Shown in pieces: positions 1-20,154 of a stretch of 24,712 nt of DNA (within the stretch, counting starts at the first letter, position 1; every line of letters starts with the position of its first letter). The stretch comes from a virus (taxonomy: Duplodnaviria > Heunggongvirae > Uroviricota > Caudoviricetes): positions 1 through 24,712 of the IMG/VR virus record IMGVR_UViG_2778261459_000007. One strand, written 5' to 3'. The position numbers were made by a program, and so were the translations under genes. The notes under the pieces are model-generated. The model searched no databases. It had not been told where the DNA came from and saw only the letters and a program-made list of their open reading frames with translations.

Positions 1-1158
1 ATGCTCACCGTTAAGCAGATTGAAGCAGCAAAGCCGAAAGAAAAACCATACCGCCTACTCGATGGTAATGGCCTGTACCTTTATGTCCCTGTATCCGGAA
101 AAAAGGTCTGGCAGCTTCGCTACAAGATTGACGGTAAGGAGAAAATCCTGACTGTCGGAAAATATCCGCTTATGACTTTGCAGGAGGCAAGGGATAAAGC
201 ATGGACTGCGAGGAAAGACATCTGGGTTGGTATAGATCCGGTAAAAGCGAAAAAGGCTTCGTCTAACAACAATTCCTTTAGCGCCATTTACAAGGAATGG
301 TACGAGCACAAGAAGCAAGTCTGGTCTGTAGGGTATGCGACTGAACTTGCAAAAATGTTTGATGACGACATTTTACCTATCATCGGCGGCCTTGAAATTC
401 AGGATATTGAGCCGATGCAACTGCTGGAAGTAATCCGCAGATTTGAAGATCGCGGTGCAATGGAACGAGCCAATAAAGCCCGAAGAAGATGCGGCGAGGT
501 TTTCCGTTACGCTATTGTCACCGGAAGGGCTAAATATAACCCGGCACCTGACCTTGCTGACGCCATGAAGGGATACCGCAAGAAGAACTTCCCGTTTCTT
601 CCTGCAGACCAGATCCCGGCATTTAACAAAGCACTGGCAACATTTTCAGGAAGCATCGTATCGCTCATTGCGACCAAAGTTTTACGCTACACAGCCCTCA
701 GAACAAAAGAGCTTCGTTCCATGCTATGGAAGAACGTCGATTTTGAAAACAGGATTATCACCATCGACGCCAATGTGATGAAGGGACGCAAAATTCATGT
801 GGTTCCTATGTCAGACCAGGTAGTTGAACTTCTCACTACGCTAAGCTCAATCACTAAACCAGTGTCAGAGTTTGTTTTTGCCGGGCGCAACGATAAGAAG
901 AAGCCAATCTGCGAGAACGCGGTATTGCTTGTGATCAAACAAATCGGCTATGAGGGTCTGGAAAGCGGTCACGGATTCAGGCATGAATTCAGCACAATTA
1001 TGAACGAGCACGAATGGCCTGCTGACGCTATTGAAGTGCAACTGGCACATGCCAACGGCGGATCTGTGCGTGGGATTTACAACCATGCTCAGTATCTCGA
1101 TAAACGCAGAGAAATGATGCAGTGGTGGGCGGACTGGCTTGATGAAAAGGTGGAGTGA
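1..1158 (+). CDS. int: Tyrosine integrase, P4-family (site-specific recombinase)
   Basis: 385-codon ORF starting at window base 1. N-terminal arm-type DNA-binding motif (LTVKQIEAAKPKEKPYRL..DGNGLYL) typical of P4-like integrases; C-terminal catalytic region with H-x-x-R (HGFRHEF) and a terminal tyrosine region (GIYNHAQY). Convergent with the acyltransferase, as int is at the conversion-gene end of P22/Sf6-type genomes. Confidence 0.9.
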   Translation: MLTVKQIEAAKPKEKPYRLLDGNGLYLYVPVSGKKVWQLRYKIDGKEKILTVGKYPLMTLQEARDKAWTARKDIWVGIDPVKAKKASSNNNSFSAIYKEWYEHKKQVWSVGYATELAKMFDDDILPIIGGLEIQDIEPMQLLEVIRRFEDRGAMERANKARRRCGEVFRYAIVTGRAKYNPAPDLADAMKGYRKKNFPFLPADQIPAFNKALATFSGSIVSLIATKVLRYTALRTKELRSMLWKNVDFENRIITIDANVMKGRKIHVVPMSDQVVELLTTLSSITKPVSEFVFAGRNDKKKPICENAVLLVIKQIGYEGLESGHGFRHEFSTIMNEHEWPADAIEVQLAHANGGSVRGIYNHAQYLDKRREMMQWWADWLDEKVE

Positions 1159-1284: not shown

Positions 1285-2334
1285 CTAAGATGATTGGTAC
1301 ACATTTTTTCTTGTATACCTGTCCTTAAGTCTTAGGAATGGCAACTCAAAATACTTAAACGACAGTGCAGAAATGGCGATAGTAAGAGAAATCTTGGTTA
1401 CATCCACCATTGGTCCAGAGATCCAAAGTAAATGCCCTCTGTACTGAAGAGAATCAACGATTTGAATTGCAAGCGGATGCCATATATACAATCCATAACT
1501 AATCTTTCCAATGTAAATTAATGGAGCAATAGTTAGAAACTTTGCTTTTATAACACCAGAAGCGATTACACCAATGAGACCTGCAAACATCATGTTTGAT
1601 GAAAGATAAAGGCTCTGGTTAGCAATTTCAGGACCAGTATGCCAGCCATATATTAGCGCACCGAATTTAACTACCGCGATAAACCAGAATATCCCTACAG
1701 TTAAGAGCAAACACGACACAATCATCATGACACGTTGTTTAACGGAAATAACAGCAATTATTGCCCCTATAAGAAGTGTGTCCATAGCTGAGAACAGCGG
1801 GGCAAACGATACTATTTGTGTATATTCTGCAAGATAAAATCGTGATGCGATCGCTACGCAAGAAAGTGCAACCGCAGATATAAAAATCCACTTTCTGTTA
1901 CAGAAGAAAACAACTAGTGGCCATAGTAAATAAAATTGTTCTTCTACAGCAAGTGACCATGTATGACCAAATTCCTGCCCTGGAACATACAGGAAGCCAT
2001 TCCATGCCATCGTGTAATTCTGTATATAGAAAATATAGTAAAACCAATTCTGCGTATCTTTTATTCCAAGATATGAGCAGTAAACGAATACAACTAATAT
2101 ATATAAATAATATAGCGGAAATATACGTAGACTTCTTCTTATATAGAAATTGGAAAAGAAGTTATTATCTTTCTTTGATTCTATCAATATCCTTGTAATC
2201 AAGAAACCAGAAAGCACAAAGAAAAAAGAAACACCAAGCCACCCCATTCCGAACCCAGGGATGCCTAAGTGATACAGGATAACACTAATAACACTGAACG
2301 CTCTTAGTCCATCAAGTTGCTGAATATGCTTCAT
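1285..2334 (-). CDS. Acyltransferase family 3 membrane protein, O-antigen acetyltransferase-like (lysogenic conversion, Oac-like)
   Basis: 349-aa ORF, very hydrophobic and multi-pass (MKHIQQLDGLRAFSVISVILYHLG... with the N-terminal GLR..H motif of Acyltransferase_3/OafA-type enzymes). Markedly AT-rich versus its flanks, roughly 35 percent versus 50 percent GC by eye. It sits between tailspike and int, exactly where Sf6 carries oac. Confidence 0.85.
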   Translation of the reverse strand: MKHIQQLDGLRAFSVISVILYHLGIPGFGMGWLGVSFFFVLSGFLITRILIESKKDNNFFSNFYIRRSLRIFPLYYLYILVVFVYCSYLGIKDTQNWFYYIFYIQNYTMAWNGFLYVPGQEFGHTWSLAVEEQFYLLWPLVVFFCNRKWIFISAVALSCVAIASRFYLAEYTQIVSFAPLFSAMDTLLIGAIIAVISVKQRVMMIVSCLLLTVGIFWFIAVVKFGALIYGWHTGPEIANQSLYLSSNMMFAGLIGVIASGVIKAKFLTIAPLIYIGKISYGLYIWHPLAIQIVDSLQYRGHLLWISGPMVDVTKISLTIAISALSFKYFELPFLRLKDRYTRKNVYQSS

Positions 2335-2394: not shown

Positions 2395-4434
2395 TTAACC
2401 TATCTGCTGCAAAACGCTTATCCCAGCACTCAAGCACTTGAGTAAAGTTGCTCTGTATTGCCCAAGCGAGTAGTTGACGGCTCCTGACGTAAGAATGTTG
2501 TCTGAGGAGTATGCGATGGTAGTTCCTGTATTGTTGGTCGTAACAATTACATCTCGCCCATATGGAGCTCCATAAATGTGTCCGATAGTTACGTTATCTG
2601 CCATGACTCTAATCTGGGTGGCTGGGTGGTAGTCTGTTAAATCAATATCACCACTGACATTTATGTCCCTATACTTAGGTAACTTACCGTCAAACCCATA
2701 AACAGTTGCCGCATTATCAAGATATTTGTGAACTGAGTCGCTTTCCTGATATTCATTTCCGCTGCATATGGCTGAGCCAGTAATGATGAAACCAGACGTT
2801 CTTTTAATACCGTTGTCATTACCAAGGAATGCAAATGAACTTCCTGATACGCTACCTTCATGAACAGTAACACCAAAGAGTCTGTCGCTATCATCATCAA
2901 TTTTGATGGCAAATGTGCAATTAGAGACAGTACCTCTTTGAATATAAAGTGATTGCTTAGAAGGTGTTGCTGAGATCATCTGGCACTCACCAAAGTGGAT
3001 ATGAGAACCAGTAAAATACCCAATATCAATACTCCCACCAGGAGCCAGCCAAATGCATTCACTGAACGTAATATATGCTCCGTTACTCATCATAAAGTAG
3101 GGCACATCTTTGCGTTCCATTGATAGCTTAGTTGCCAGATATGCAGCGTCAACAGGTATAAATGTACACTCACTGAAAGACAGGCGATAAGAGTTTCCAA
3201 GATTCATTGCTGTTGAAATGTAATAGAATCTGTCGTTATCAGTAACCCCATCACCGACAGGCCTTGCAACTTCAAAATGACACTGGCTCCATGAGAAGTT
3301 CCAGCAATTATTAATGTTAAACATATATGCCGTTAGTTCGAAATGGCAACCATTAAAATATACATAGTTTGAGTCTGTATTGCATGTTACTGCGAAGTTT
3401 GTTGAGTTACCGCATTGTAAAACGCTACAGTTGTTAAAGTATGTGTCTTGTATATATCCAAGCTCAAGCCCCTGATTAGGGAAGTGCTGGATATTTACAC
3501 CGCTGACAACCCCCATCCAACCTACATTTGCAAGATGCAGACCTACATCGCATTGACCATCTACACCCCAGATAGCGAAATCACGTAGGTTAAGCCCAAA
3601 ACAGTATTTATCCGGCGCAATCGAAAGAGTTCTACCATTGGCAACTTTAGAGTGGAACGTTGTTCCGCGAACTGGAGATGGTGAATGTGCTGTACTCGAT
3701 ACGTCTCGTAAACCCTGACCACCTTCGCCATAAAGAGAAGGTGCATAATCAGCAACGACGGTATCAGAAATTATATAATCACCAGATGGTTGAAAGACTC
3801 CAGCATTTCTTGTTTTGGCTACATTTATAGCCGATTGCCAAGCTGCATAATCTTGGCTTTGTGATAATGATGTAACAAACGGATACACCATTTGTGCGGC
3901 TGTTAATGTTGAGAAGATTTCACTAAGAGGGTGATCATTTCCGTCTCCAATAGCACCAAAATCTTTTAAGTTTAATACATCTTTATTTTTATCGTGCTGT
4001 GTTCTCTGAACAGCACCAGTATATGGCTGGTGAACGAATACTTTTGCATCATTTACTAACGGTGGCTGACTATCACTTAGAAGTTCTGATCTTAGCTGAT
4101 CAGGATCATACTTCAGAACATTCGGAAAATAGAACTGCTGCGCACCGTATGCATCATAAACAGCCATAGAATGGCCTTGCACAGTTACGAACTTTGCAAT
4201 CTGTCCGTTATATACCGGGTAACCAGCAGCGTTAATGATGATTGGTTGCGAAACAGGAACGTGAGATCCATCTTCGTTTTCTACATAAACCTGAATCTGG
4301 TTTTCAGGATTTACCGGATCAGTGTCAATTTTACCGATATAAATTTTGCCATTGGCTACAGTTTTAAAAGAACGAGCCATAGTGAAGAATTGAGAAGGCA
4401 TGCTTACCACAACATTTGCGGTGATATCTGACAT
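2395..4434 (-). CDS. Tailspike protein (P22 gp9 / Sf6 gp14 family): conserved N-terminal head-binding domain plus beta-helix receptor-binding domain
   Basis: N-terminus [59 protein letters not shown]... matches the P22-like tailspike head-binding domain. The remainder is N/S/T/G-rich, consistent with a right-handed beta-helix. Start chosen at ATG 4434, preceded by GGAG; the ORF-track start at 4482 adds 16 non-conserved residues. Confidence 0.9.
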
Positions 4435-4555
4435 TTCATTGCTCCAGACGAATGATATGATGCAATCATGATGTGATTGCATACCGAAATGGTACTATTG
4501 AGTATTTATCCAGTAGGTTACGATGCCATTCCACCCAACTGGTGAGGCATCAAGG
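4435..4555. promoter_or_regulatory. Divergent promoter/operator region between tailspike and mnt
   Basis: 121-bp gap between divergent start codons. Contains inverted repeat ATGCAATC (4460-4467) / GATTGCAT (4475-4482), the 8-bp palindrome ATCATGAT (4465-4472), and a possible plus-strand promoter TTGCAT (4477-4482) - 17 nt - GAGTAT (4500-4505). Confidence 0.35.
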
Positions 4556-4816
4556 ATGTACAGCAAATACGACGAGGCGCAGTTTCACTTGAGACTTCCG
4601 CATGAACTCCACGCGAAAATTAAACATCGCGCGAAGATGAATAACAGGTCGCTGAACTCAGAGATAATTGCAGCGATTGAAGAATCATTGGATAAACAAA
4701 GCTCTGCATCAGTTTACATTGACGATGCAGAGCGTATGGCAGAACAACAATCGGATATGGTTAAGAAAATTGTCTTTGATACGCTCAGAGATTTATATAA
4801 AAAAGACAGCAACTAA
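4556..4816 (+). CDS. mnt: Mnt-like ribbon-helix-helix repressor (Arc/MetJ fold)
   Basis: Translation ...DEAQFHLRLPHELHAKIKHRAKMNNRSLNSEIIAAIEESLDK...DAERMAEQQSDMVKKIVFDTLRDLYKK aligns along its length with P22 Mnt as I recall it (DPHFNFRMPMEVREKLKFRAEANGRSMNSELLQIVQDALSK...NDAERLADEQSELVKKMVFDTLKDLYKK). Start set at ATG 4556, preceded by AAGGA; the ORF-track start at 4523 gives an unaligned N-terminal extension. Confidence 0.85.
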   Translation: MYSKYDEAQFHLRLPHELHAKIKHRAKMNNRSLNSEIIAAIEESLDKQSSASVYIDDAERMAEQQSDMVKKIVFDTLRDLYKKDSN

Positions 4817-4833
4817 CCATCCGTGGCTTTCCG

Positions 4834-7137
4834 TTACTTCTGGTTATCATCACTGTTCATCCAGTACATGATGCCTAGCCTTGATATGGTTTTCTTATCT
4901 GATTCTGGAAGTGAGTTGTAAAACGAGCGCCAAGCAGAAGAGCGTCTTACAGTTGTATCAACGATGCTTTCTGGTGCTTGTTTTACTGCCAGCCTTGCTG
5001 CTTTCTGGAATTCTGGTGAGCTAATTAGCTTTTCTGCAGATTCAATTGATTCAGCGCCGCCCATCGCCCTGATTTTGCTGGCGACTTTTGCCCCAATTTC
5101 TGACCCAGCAACAGCACCTACTGCACTGAACGGTCCTGACACAGTTGAACCAACCGCAGTGCCAATGCGTTGGGCATGGTTAGCAACAAATTCATTTGCC
5201 GCAGTGACGCGATTAAACCGTTTGACGAACTCGTTTAGTCTTCCTGTAGTTATCTCGTAAGATTTTGCGTCTTTGATAGCCTTTGCGACCTTATATACAT
5301 CGTTCAGACCTGACATAGTCTCTTTTGGTAAATGTCGGGCAAGATTGCGCATCTGCCCGTTTGCTAACATGTTTTGATACCAGTCAGCAAACCCTGCAGG
5401 ATTAAAATCAGCGCCACGTTTTCCGTTCGAAAGCATATCCCGAAGACCTGTTCCCAGTAGCTCGGTTCTTAGCTTCCTGGACGGCGTGTTTTGCATCAAT
5501 TCACGAAATCCTTTGGCATCGCCTTTCGACATTGCCTGTAGTGCTGTAGTTGCTTTGCGAGAAACATCACCGTTCAGCGTTCTGCCAGTTAGATTAATCA
5601 TTTGCTCTTCCATGCTTTTTCGCATCTGAACAAGCCTCTGAGCAACTTCAAAATCACGTAATGCATTTGTCTCTGACAGCGCCGCCTTTTGATCATCGGC
5701 GAGCGAACCGTAAAGCCTCGATAAAGCAGCGCGATCAGCATCTTTATATGGTCCAGAATTCTTATGAAGTGCATCACCAACAAGTCGTCGTTGCTTATTG
5801 AGATTTGCATAAGTTAATGCGCCGTTCTTGCCTGGATTAACTGCCCGAAAGACTCTCTTTTCAATAGGGTCAAGGTTTTTCATCCCGCCAAGATCTTCTG
5901 CCACCTGTTTGAGCATTGACCTTGTTGATGGCGCATCAATTTTTGCACCTGCAGGCATCGCCTTTTCAACATTGCGATAAAGCTGGTCGCTTCGTTTCAT
6001 CAGCGCAGACATTCTTCCATTGACCGTATCAATAAACTTGTCGCTCATACCAAGAGCATCTTTTGCACCGGAAACGTGATCAATTATCTCCCCCGCGCCC
6101 TGTGCTAGCTGCCTGATTGCTTCATTTTCCTGCACCTGTAGAGCAGAACCCGCACGGGACTTGATTGCTTGCTCAACTGCCTTGTATTGCTCGTTCCCGG
6201 AAAAGTGTGAAGGGAGTAATGAATCAACATTAAGCCTTTCAGCAGACTCCAGAACTTCAGCCTGAGGATTGATATCTAGTTCATCAAGCGATGAAGCGAG
6301 ATTTGGCCTTTTTTGTGCTGCTACTGTGCGAACGACTTCCTCTGGGTTCCTCGTCGCAGGCGTCATTGGTACACCTTGTGCTACTCTTGCCTCTGCGGCA
6401 TGAACCGCAGGATTTGTTGCTGCAGCGGCATCACCGGAGAATTGTGATGTTTCTGTTGGCGCAGTGGTCGCTCTCTGTGCAGATGTTTTATTGCCACTAA
6501 TTATATTTGATGCACCACGAACACCACGGGTAACGCCATTTATCAGGCCATGCGTAGCAATGTTAAGTCCGGCATTAATAGCGGCATTTTCGGCAAAATC
6601 ACCCCGTTGATTCGCCGCGTCAGCGAGAGAACCAATGACCATGTTTCCAGCTACACCTGCTCCAGGAACAAGATAACCGCCTATTGACTCTCCAGCTTGC
6701 GCATACGGATCCGTTGGCCGGTTAACTGGTCTATATACTTCATCAAGAATCTTTGGTCCATCAAAACTCTGAGATGCGGCATTAATGAGACTCGCCCCCC
6801 CCTGAAGAACGTCAAAAGGAATATTTACAAATCCTCTTACCGCCTGCTCGGCAATTTGACCTACGCTTTGCCCACCTGTTAGCCATTCTCCTGCACGCTG
6901 CATAAGTGATTTGTCTTGCTGAATGGTATCAGGAGATTGCCCTACTTCCTGCTGTTCTGTCTGCATTGAAGGCAATGGATAGGCATCATAGAAAGCTTGC
7001 TTAGCCTGATCTGCATTTTCTCCGGCTTGCGGGGCCACGACTTCATTGAAGTATTGCTCCTGAGCCTGCGCTTTTTGTTCTGGTGCTAACGCCTGATACT
7101 GTGGAGAGGCGATAACATCTTTCCATGCTTTAGCCAT
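4834..7137 (-). CDS. Ejection (E) protein, P22 gp16-like
   Basis: 767-aa ORF, third of three consecutive ejection-protein genes in the conserved gp7-gp20-gp16 order. Its start overlaps the upstream stop (TAATG). Ala/Gly/Gln-rich composition typical of ejection proteins. Call rests on position and composition, not sequence recall. Confidence 0.75.
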
Positions 7138-19635: not shown

Positions 19636-20154
19636 TCACTTTGGCAGTCCGGGGATCGATATTTGCGCCTGCTGCTCAAGCCTTTCGATTCTTGCTATGA
19701 GTTGCGGTTTTTTGATCCTGCCCCAGCGGTTCAGCAAGCGTCCTGACATACTGGCAACATCCTTTTCCTTCATGAACTCCAGCATTAACTCGTTGTGCTC
19801 TCTTTGGTATGAGTGAGCCATCTCCATCAGCCTGTCACGCATCCAATTAAATGCTTTGATAAACGCCTCTTTGATGGCGGCAGCTTTTTTGCCGGTAAAC
19901 GACATGATGATGTACATCGCGCCGTCTTTGGAAATTTCATATTCAACATACTGATTACCCTTGTGTTCATAGGTAACCCGCGAAAAGTTGCTGGTTAGAA
20001 ATTCATCCGAACAGTCTAGCTTTTCGATTTTCTGAATGATGTGGTGATGCTGCTTGTCGAAGTAAGCTGCTACCTTGCGGGAGGTTGTGATCACGCGATC
20101 ACCAGAAACAACCACCATGTCCCGGAAATCGAGATTAGCCAATTGATGATTCAT
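19636..20154 (-). CDS. rha: Rha-family phage regulatory protein
   Basis: 172-aa ORF. N-terminal VVVSGDRVITTSRKVAAYFDKQHHHIIQKIEKL fits the Phage_pRha domain signature. Located between the lysis cassette and terminase, where P22-like phages carry a rha-type gene. Confidence 0.7.
   Translation of the reverse strand: MNHQLANLDFRDMVVVSGDRVITTSRKVAAYFDKQHHHIIQKIEKLDCSDEFLTSNFSRVTYEHKGNQYVEYEISKDGAMYIIMSFTGKKAAAIKEAFIKAFNWMRDRLMEMAHSYQREHNELMLEFMKEKDVASMSGRLLNRWGRIKKPQLIARIERLEQQAQISIPGLPK

Follow-up and report, generated by a model that had tools for sequence, protein, structure and literature searches.

A solitary mnt gene beside the tailspike gene of a P22-like prophage: a putative minimal ant moron

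Genes and features of the locus

The window analysed here is the whole stretch of 24,712 nucleotides at positions 1 to 24,712 of the IMG/VR virus record IMGVR_UViG_2778261459_000007. A tailspike gene and an mnt homologue lie back to back in it, and the following genes and features were assigned in and around the gap between them:

1-1158, plus strand: integrase
1285-2334, minus strand: Acyl_transf_3 gene, a presumed O-antigen modification gene
2395-4434, minus strand: tailspike gene; its head-binding domain is of P22 type, and the receptor-binding part behind it is a different one
4442-4445, minus strand: Shine-Dalgarno sequence GGAG of the tailspike gene, 7 nt ahead of the ATG and kept in all leaders
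4460-4482, minus strand: palindrome, read as a putative tailspike-sense stem-loop AUGCAAUCA-CAUCA-UGAUUGCAU that ends 14 nt ahead of the Shine-Dalgarno sequence
4480-4496, no strand assigned: predicted Mnt operator CATACCGAAATGGTACT, with the core TACC-N5-GGTA centred on A4488
4498-4524, plus strand: predicted Pmnt, with -35 TTGAGT (4498-4503), a 15-bp spacer and -10 TACGAT (4519-4524); positional homologue of P22 Pmnt, weak by consensus
4501-4529, minus strand: candidate decayed Pant homologue, ATGGCA (4529-4524), 17 bp and AATACT (4506-4501); 8/12 consensus positions, against 11/12 in P22
4522-4551, plus strand: inverted repeat GATGCC (4522-4527) / GGCATC (4546-4551), with arms on either side of the mnt leader, overlapping the -10 and also the Shine-Dalgarno sequence of mnt, GAGG (4544-4547)
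4556-4816, plus strand: mnt homologue of 86 aa, with an RHH N-terminal domain and a Mnt-type C-terminal tetramerisation domain
4834-7137, minus strand: gene for a gene 16-type ejection protein, the final late-operon gene ahead of the moron
beyond mnt, minus strand: homologues of the P22 ejection genes 16, 20 and 7

The tailspike start was placed at the ATG at 4434 (MSDITANV...; Pfam Head_binding, 3.3e-66), which is the Met at which its homologues also begin, and the longer ORF reaching 4482 is an artefact of the ORF finder. The mnt gene starts at 4556 (MYSKYDEAQFHLRLP...) and ends at 4816, leaving an intergenic gap of 121 bp (4435-4555) on one side and 17 bp between the stop codons of mnt and gene 16 on the other. 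The divergent placement of mnt and the tailspike gene across 121 bp, as given in the original prediction, was thus confirmed from the ORF coordinates. RefSeq entries of close relatives use an upstream ATG, at 4523, to give a 97-aa product; this start was rejected as not conserved, since the Gally, L257 and L261 types have it in another frame or with a stop codon behind it.

That 4556-4816 encodes a homologue of Mnt, as had been proposed, is borne out by matches to both domains, namely the N-terminal Arc-like RHH domain (Pfam Arc PF03869, 1.6e-14; PDB 1MNT, 2.3e-19, residues 6-79) and the C-terminal tetramerisation (coiled-coil) domain (Pfam Repressor_Mnt PF11423, 2.8e-14; PDB 1QEY, 1.1e-8). 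The absence of arc and ant also held, as tblastn detected no homologue of arc, ant, KilA or the JEP4-type Rha gene between gene 16 and the tailspike gene or elsewhere in the window. A Rha-family gene (Phage_pRha and ORF11CD3) is found at 19636-20154 on the minus strand, flanked by minus-strand ORFs, where Sf101 carries its Rha-like gene, between lysis and terminase genes; nothing resembling a Mnt operator was found near it. The Acyl_transf_3 gene lies 60 bp (2335-2394) downstream of the tailspike gene on the same strand, and a promoter for its expression in the lysogen is not obvious; the O-acetyltransferase gene (oac) of Sf101 is instead convergent with the tailspike gene. In RefSeq, the mnt homologues of Sf101 (gp14; locus L001, 4224-4517), ST64T, ST104, ST160 and epsilon34 are labelled 'partition protein ATPase', which is a propagated misannotation, and the mnt gene of IME10 is unannotated. 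The Sf101 paper contains no discussion of mnt, and the BTP1 and SieA papers add nothing on it.

The interval between gene 16 and gene 9 was named the 'ant moron' by Villafane et al. 2008 (PMC2629481), who listed only mnt and one gene of unknown function for ST64T, ST104 and Para1. The mnt-only ant morons of L, ST64T and ST104 have been published (PMC2629481; 10.1101/2020.10.05.325894), and the window likewise carries a non-morphogenetic insert between gene 16 and the tailspike gene that includes mnt without arc or ant. The moron of L, ST64T and ST104 is similar in that mnt diverges from the tailspike gene over about 120-135 bp (135 bp in annotated phage L), neither arc nor ant nor sieA is present, a predicted 17-bp operator directly adjoins the Pmnt -35, and a leader hairpin precedes the tailspike Shine-Dalgarno sequence. 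It differs in its Mnt class, since the window has KYDEAQFHLRLP with C[A/G]TACC-N5-GGTAC, whereas the L group has GRDDPQFNLRLP with AAGACCACGGTGGTCTT. The window also lacks orf62 and a terminator at the 3' end of mnt, has another hairpin sequence, and belongs to phages with E. coli and Shigella as hosts.

Compared with the immI region of P22 (mnt, Omnt, Pant/Pmnt, Oarc, arc, sar, ant), the window has a Mnt with homology in both domains and an unchanged spacing of predicted operator, Pmnt -35, -10 and mnt start; however, arc, ant, sar and sieA are missing, and the operator sequence and recognition residues differ. The arrangement of ant under Pant with arc and sar, a hallmark of P22 immI, is therefore not present. 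As there is no ant in the window, Mnt cannot be the maintenance-of-lysogeny repressor of ant there. JEP4 and many composite morons of E. coli share with the window the N-terminus of Mnt (referred to as class A), the predicted operator and Pmnt, always at the tailspike leader, but they include antirepressor genes and further regulators and have another C-terminal half of Mnt. In JEP4, unlike the window, a terminator lies within the 3' end of mnt on the opposite strand.

The tailspike leader hairpin and the predicted operator

The inverted repeats described in the original prediction are real, and ATGCAATC/GATTGCAT extends to 9-bp arms with a 5-nt spacer, forming the perfect 9+5+9 palindrome ATGCAATCA-TGATG-TGATTGCAT at 4460-4482, with ATCATGAT inside it at 4465-4472. 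About 0.04 such matches are expected by chance per window. In window-type leaders, 97.4% of cells pair on the tailspike-sense strand. The commonest variant, also found in Sf101, breaks the DNA palindrome and gains a U:G pair (for U:A) on the minus-strand RNA, and one lineage of this variant restores C:G. Four more single transitions all yield G:U on the minus strand and would be A:C on the plus strand, one divergent Escherichia sequence shows a double change from G:C to U:A, and only two changes, both transversions, break a pair. For the window type, 7 of 500 shuffles reach the covariation score. The covariation is modest across the hairpin analyses, which count 5-7 events and have the observed score reached by 7-15 of 500 shuffles.

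The 23-bp palindrome is absent from VSe13, JEP4 and many IMG/VR loci that share the same Mnt recognition strand. In the leaders of P22, CUS-3, JEP4, Gally, L and VSe13, the stretch equally far from the Shine-Dalgarno sequence forms another hairpin (CCGUAGC-CAU-GCUGCGG and relatives); its G:U pairs are valid in the tailspike sense only, and RNAalifold predicts the P22-type leader helix de novo. All 61 unique leaders (61/61) fold as a hairpin at that position, the sense strand being the more stable in 54 of them, and Sf6 and HK620, which have no mnt, carry a hairpin 13-15 nt ahead of the Shine-Dalgarno sequence. Because the hairpin is present in these mnt-less phages and the G:U pairing holds only in the sense strand, the palindrome would belong to the tailspike message and not to mnt. 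Most probably, then, the palindrome forms an RNA hairpin in the leader of the tailspike mRNA and is not an operator for Mnt. Of the relatives suggested for comparison with the original prediction, CUS-3, HK620 and Sf6 have a leader hairpin of this kind.

Over the P22-like leaders examined (61 unique sequences of at least six sequence types, together with Sf6 and HK620), the stem-loop ends 13-15 nt ahead of the Shine-Dalgarno sequence; it was located at about 2085-2101 in P22 (L004), at about 1650-1680 in Sf6 (L283), and in HK620 (L284). We know of no described function for a stem-loop at a fixed position before a tailspike Shine-Dalgarno sequence, where it might serve in the processing, stability or translation of the message, and no relevant Rfam match was obtained in 4200-5000 at E values up to 1. 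An intrinsic terminator was rejected, as there is no run of T or U on either strand. The region of the leader hairpin looks like a recombination joint. In JEP4 (L005, about 3300-3365), a P22-type leader and start codon are followed by a short ORF only, ahead of a different tailspike gene, and in the E. coli match H104 and in L041 an HNH-endonuclease-type insert and P22-like boundary sequence lie between the operator and the tailspike gene.

An alignment with the P22 Omnt/Pant region, also suggested with the original prediction, was made with MAFFT and placed window positions 4480-4496 in the same columns as AGGTCCACCGTGGACCT, which the P22 record annotates as the operator and which sits directly before the ATTGAG of the Pmnt -35. 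A twofold symmetric operator of roughly 17 bp next to its own promoter is a hallmark of the Mnt family. The half-sites in the window are TACC at 4483-4486 and GGTA at 4491-4494. The recognition strand of the window Mnt, MYSKYDEAQFHLRL, is also carried by VSe13, JEP4 and ~150 further loci, and all that the window shares with these is C[A/G]TACC-NAAAN-GGTAC and the sequence rightward from it to the mnt start. L and Gally have the other recognition strand, GRDDPQFNLRLP, and AAGACCACNGTGGTCTT at the same alignment columns. A change of recognition strand is thus accompanied by a change of predicted operator sequence within a fixed geometry.

To describe conservation, the loci were sorted into nine leader types, defined by left flanks <70% identical and including Escherichia, Salmonella and Serratia contexts. 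Across these types, conservation of the majority base is 0.59 to the left of the 17-mer, 0.90 inside it and 0.81 to its right, so that the right flank (Pmnt) is also conserved and the operator is not an isolated island of conservation. No variation is seen at C-8, TACC, AAA and GGTAC. Searched with a matrix of the operator variants, the window and the whole Sf101 genome each gave a single site; no second conserved site was found in the window, the Sf101 genome, the JEP4-type morons or the 283 loci (2.57 Mb), where only chance-level TACC-N5-GGTA matches inside genes occur. The symmetry of the site in the window is 4/8, as compared with 6/8 in JEP4. As judged by this conservation and by the positional homology to P22 Omnt beside Pmnt, 4480-4496 is likely to be the Mnt operator.

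A consensus scan that recovers P22 Pant (TTGACA-17-TATATT, 11/12) and Pmnt (TTGAGA-17-TATCAT, 10/12) exactly where they are annotated passes no sigma-70-like promoter at the corresponding positions of the window, phage L or JEP4. The spacer of the predicted Pmnt is 15 bp, which is poor, against 17 bp in most relatives. A strong Pant that overlaps Omnt and faces away from mnt, another hallmark of P22 immI, is lacking, and the simplest reading of the sequence is that Pant is essentially gone in the window. Given the decay of Pant, the tailspike is most likely made via late-operon read-through across the antisense mnt gene, as in Sf6, which has no moron. A scan of the minus strand from 4834 to 4434 found no terminator-like site.

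Several other promoter candidates were rejected. Leftward promoters picked by eye (GATAAA/ATAAAT with an upstream TG; TATGCA/TGTAAT past the operator; a sigma-54-like TGGCAT) lack the key -11A or -7T or are unconserved between leader types. An alternative Pmnt with the extended -10 TGgTACTAT (4490-4498) looks promising in the window, yet Gally and L do not share it, and a plus-strand promoter-like site at 4428-4456 is missing from other leader types. The window, JEP4, Gally, L and L261 types all keep the GATGCC/GGCATC repeat despite a differing 18-nt interior, and P22 lacks it; the repeat variants GGCATT and GGCGTC keep pairing as plus-strand RNA only. A hairpin formed by the repeat in the mnt mRNA would require transcription to begin upstream of the proposed -10, in conflict with the proposed start site.

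Distribution of the solitary mnt gene and selection on it

The arrangement had been called unusual, but this does not stand, as the same layout occurs in Sf101, IME10, the E. coli genomes and IMG/VR contigs counted below, and the published mnt-only morons. Over 651 bp around the gap, the identity to Sf101 (NC_027398) and IME10 (NC_019501) is 97%, and both phages have the same order of tailspike gene, mnt and gene 16. When a 451-bp probe spanning the tailspike start, the gap and mnt was compared with 5,426 complete E. coli genomes, 246 of them matched it over at least 80% of its length, and the annotation at the matches reads 'Arc family DNA-binding protein' next to 'phage tailspike protein'. 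The solitary mnt layout was seen in 83 of the first 94 loci and in 20 further loci from a second IMG/VR scan, and it is present in >100 IMG/VR contigs. A scan of GTDB species representatives with the Mnt protein gave only three loci; the diversity came from IMG/VR and the E. coli genomes.

In the loci compared, class-A mnt always adjoins the tailspike leader, and its other neighbour varies, being either gene 16 directly or a convergent operon of hyp/KilA/Rha-Ant(/Arc) type, with or without sieA. The convergent antirepressor operons carry a second mnt or a C2-like HTH repressor of their own. Class-A Mnt would thus not be their promoter-proximal regulator, even where an antirepressor gene is present. 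Two mnt-type genes per moron are found, for example, in L211 (4865-7613) and also in L213, L223 and others; in morons of this type, class-A mnt lies by the tailspike gene and the convergent hyp/KilA/Ant/Arc operon diverges from the gene of another RHH repressor (MSKFPSHEMDRFNIRLP...), unlike the first. CUS-3 has two mnt genes in tandem.

The mnt gene is intact in 191 of 192 copies. Pairwise comparison (NG86) of 62 unique 86-codon alleles gave a dN of 0.016, a dS of 0.100 and a dN/dS of 0.16, with a value of 0.045 for codons 1-45 (DNA-binding domain) and 0.30 for the C-terminal part. The near-complete integrity and low dN/dS argue that mnt is kept by selection and is not a dead remnant.

Mnt is a mosaic, with a shared N-terminal DNA-binding half joined near an SKPSP linker to one of several C-terminal halves, which implies recombination inside the gene. 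The C-terminal halves are P22-like (the window, 86 aa), a variant ending in ...KTMYSNNKKET (88 aa) or an unrelated one, ...ERLASLISERVKEVAADILRKEKTRD (JEP4, VSe13); such mosaic genes lie at 4556-4816 in the window, at 3498-3755 in JEP4 (L005) and at 4266-4520 in L003.

Possible roles of the solitary Mnt

Orphan mnt genes in P22-like phages have long been noted, as possible remnants or as genes with a new role; both alternatives offered in the original prediction, a repressor with nothing left to repress or one that gates the tailspike gene, are already published ones. On balance, the stretch 4435-4816 is probably a minimal ant moron of a P22-like (Lederbergvirus) prophage that holds only the mnt cassette of P22 immI, with an mnt gene under selection, the putative operator at 4480-4496 and the leader hairpin. 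As the mnt-only kind of moron has been described, what is new here is the Mnt recognition class and the smallest version of the moron. The data argue that selection maintains mnt, and they point to a second Mnt recognition class with a predicted operator, always at the tailspike leader.

For P22, an effect of Mnt on the number of late-operon polymerases that reach the tailspike gene has been raised (PMC2629481). In the minimal moron proposed here, Mnt would be made in the prophage from the weak predicted Pmnt, the one candidate for the late-operon-independent mnt expression that marks such morons, and the Mnt tetramer would occupy the single operator at 4480-4496. By analogy with P22, the position of this operator would leave Pmnt usable and cover the old Pant start as well as the sole entrance to the tailspike leader. 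Mnt would in this way silence any remaining Pant-type leftward initiation and may impede polymerases heading to the tailspike gene, and in lytic growth late-operon read-through across the antisense mnt gene would make the tailspike. A roadblock by Mnt to the antiterminated late polymerase is speculative. That a repressor acting only beside its own gene brings no obvious benefit counts against the mechanism.

It is improbable that the class-A mnt/operator cassette is a valve on the expression of the receptor-binding protein, throttling tailspike stoichiometry or the timing of the last late gene in cis and acting in trans on superinfecting relatives. If it did act in trans, superinfecting relatives would yield tailspike-less, non-infectious particles, an interference not described for Mnt. 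The valve would fit the constant place of class-A mnt next to the tailspike leader, also in morons that have a separately regulated antirepressor operon, and the single predicted operator on the sole polymerase path into the tailspike gene. The same operator position leaves some room for a promoter of the tailspike gene gated by Mnt, even with the Pant homologue decayed. A different form of control, with the 23-bp palindrome as the Mnt operator and Mnt gating a dedicated promoter in the gap for the tailspike gene, for example to keep it off in the lysogen, has in its favour that the palindrome is real, unlikely by chance and placed between both genes, that class-A mnt adjoins the tailspike leader whatever else is in the moron, and that P22 Pant transcripts can reach gene 9 (PMC2629481). 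We nevertheless hold it to be very unlikely, given that loci with the same recognition strand have no palindrome, the commonest variant gives up DNA symmetry and keeps minus-strand RNA pairing, a hairpin also lies there in Sf6 and HK620, which have no mnt, and no leftward sigma-70-like site passes the scan that recovers P22 Pant.

Two further explanations concern the loss of ant. A decaying remnant, in which mnt became functionless with the loss of arc and ant and persists because the deletion was recent, was left open in the phage L paper (10.1101/2020.10.05.325894) and fits the lack of an ant gene to regulate, the decayed Pant, an operator less symmetric than that of JEP4 and the 15-bp Pmnt spacer. 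However, the strong purifying selection on mnt, most marked in the DNA-binding half and seen at a dS of about 0.10, argues against such a relic, as do the operator core, invariant over nine leader types from Escherichia, Salmonella and Serratia, and the abundance and diversification of the solitary form; we therefore regard it as unlikely. The P22 Mnt represses the antirepressor promoter of superinfecting P22, and antirepressor cross-talk between prophages was reportedly documented by Lemire in 2011. A lone Mnt could similarly repress the antirepressor promoter of incoming or co-resident relatives and shield its prophage from induction, and selection on the DNA-binding domain would fit a function in trans. 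Such immunity is nonetheless quite doubtful, because in the 283 loci the class-A operator occurs only beside class-A mnt and never at an arc/ant promoter, and the ant operons sit beside another regulator, either a second mnt or the C2-like HTH protein. Apart from any role of Mnt, a leader hairpin that is fixed in position and changing in sequence may bear on expression of the last late gene more generally.
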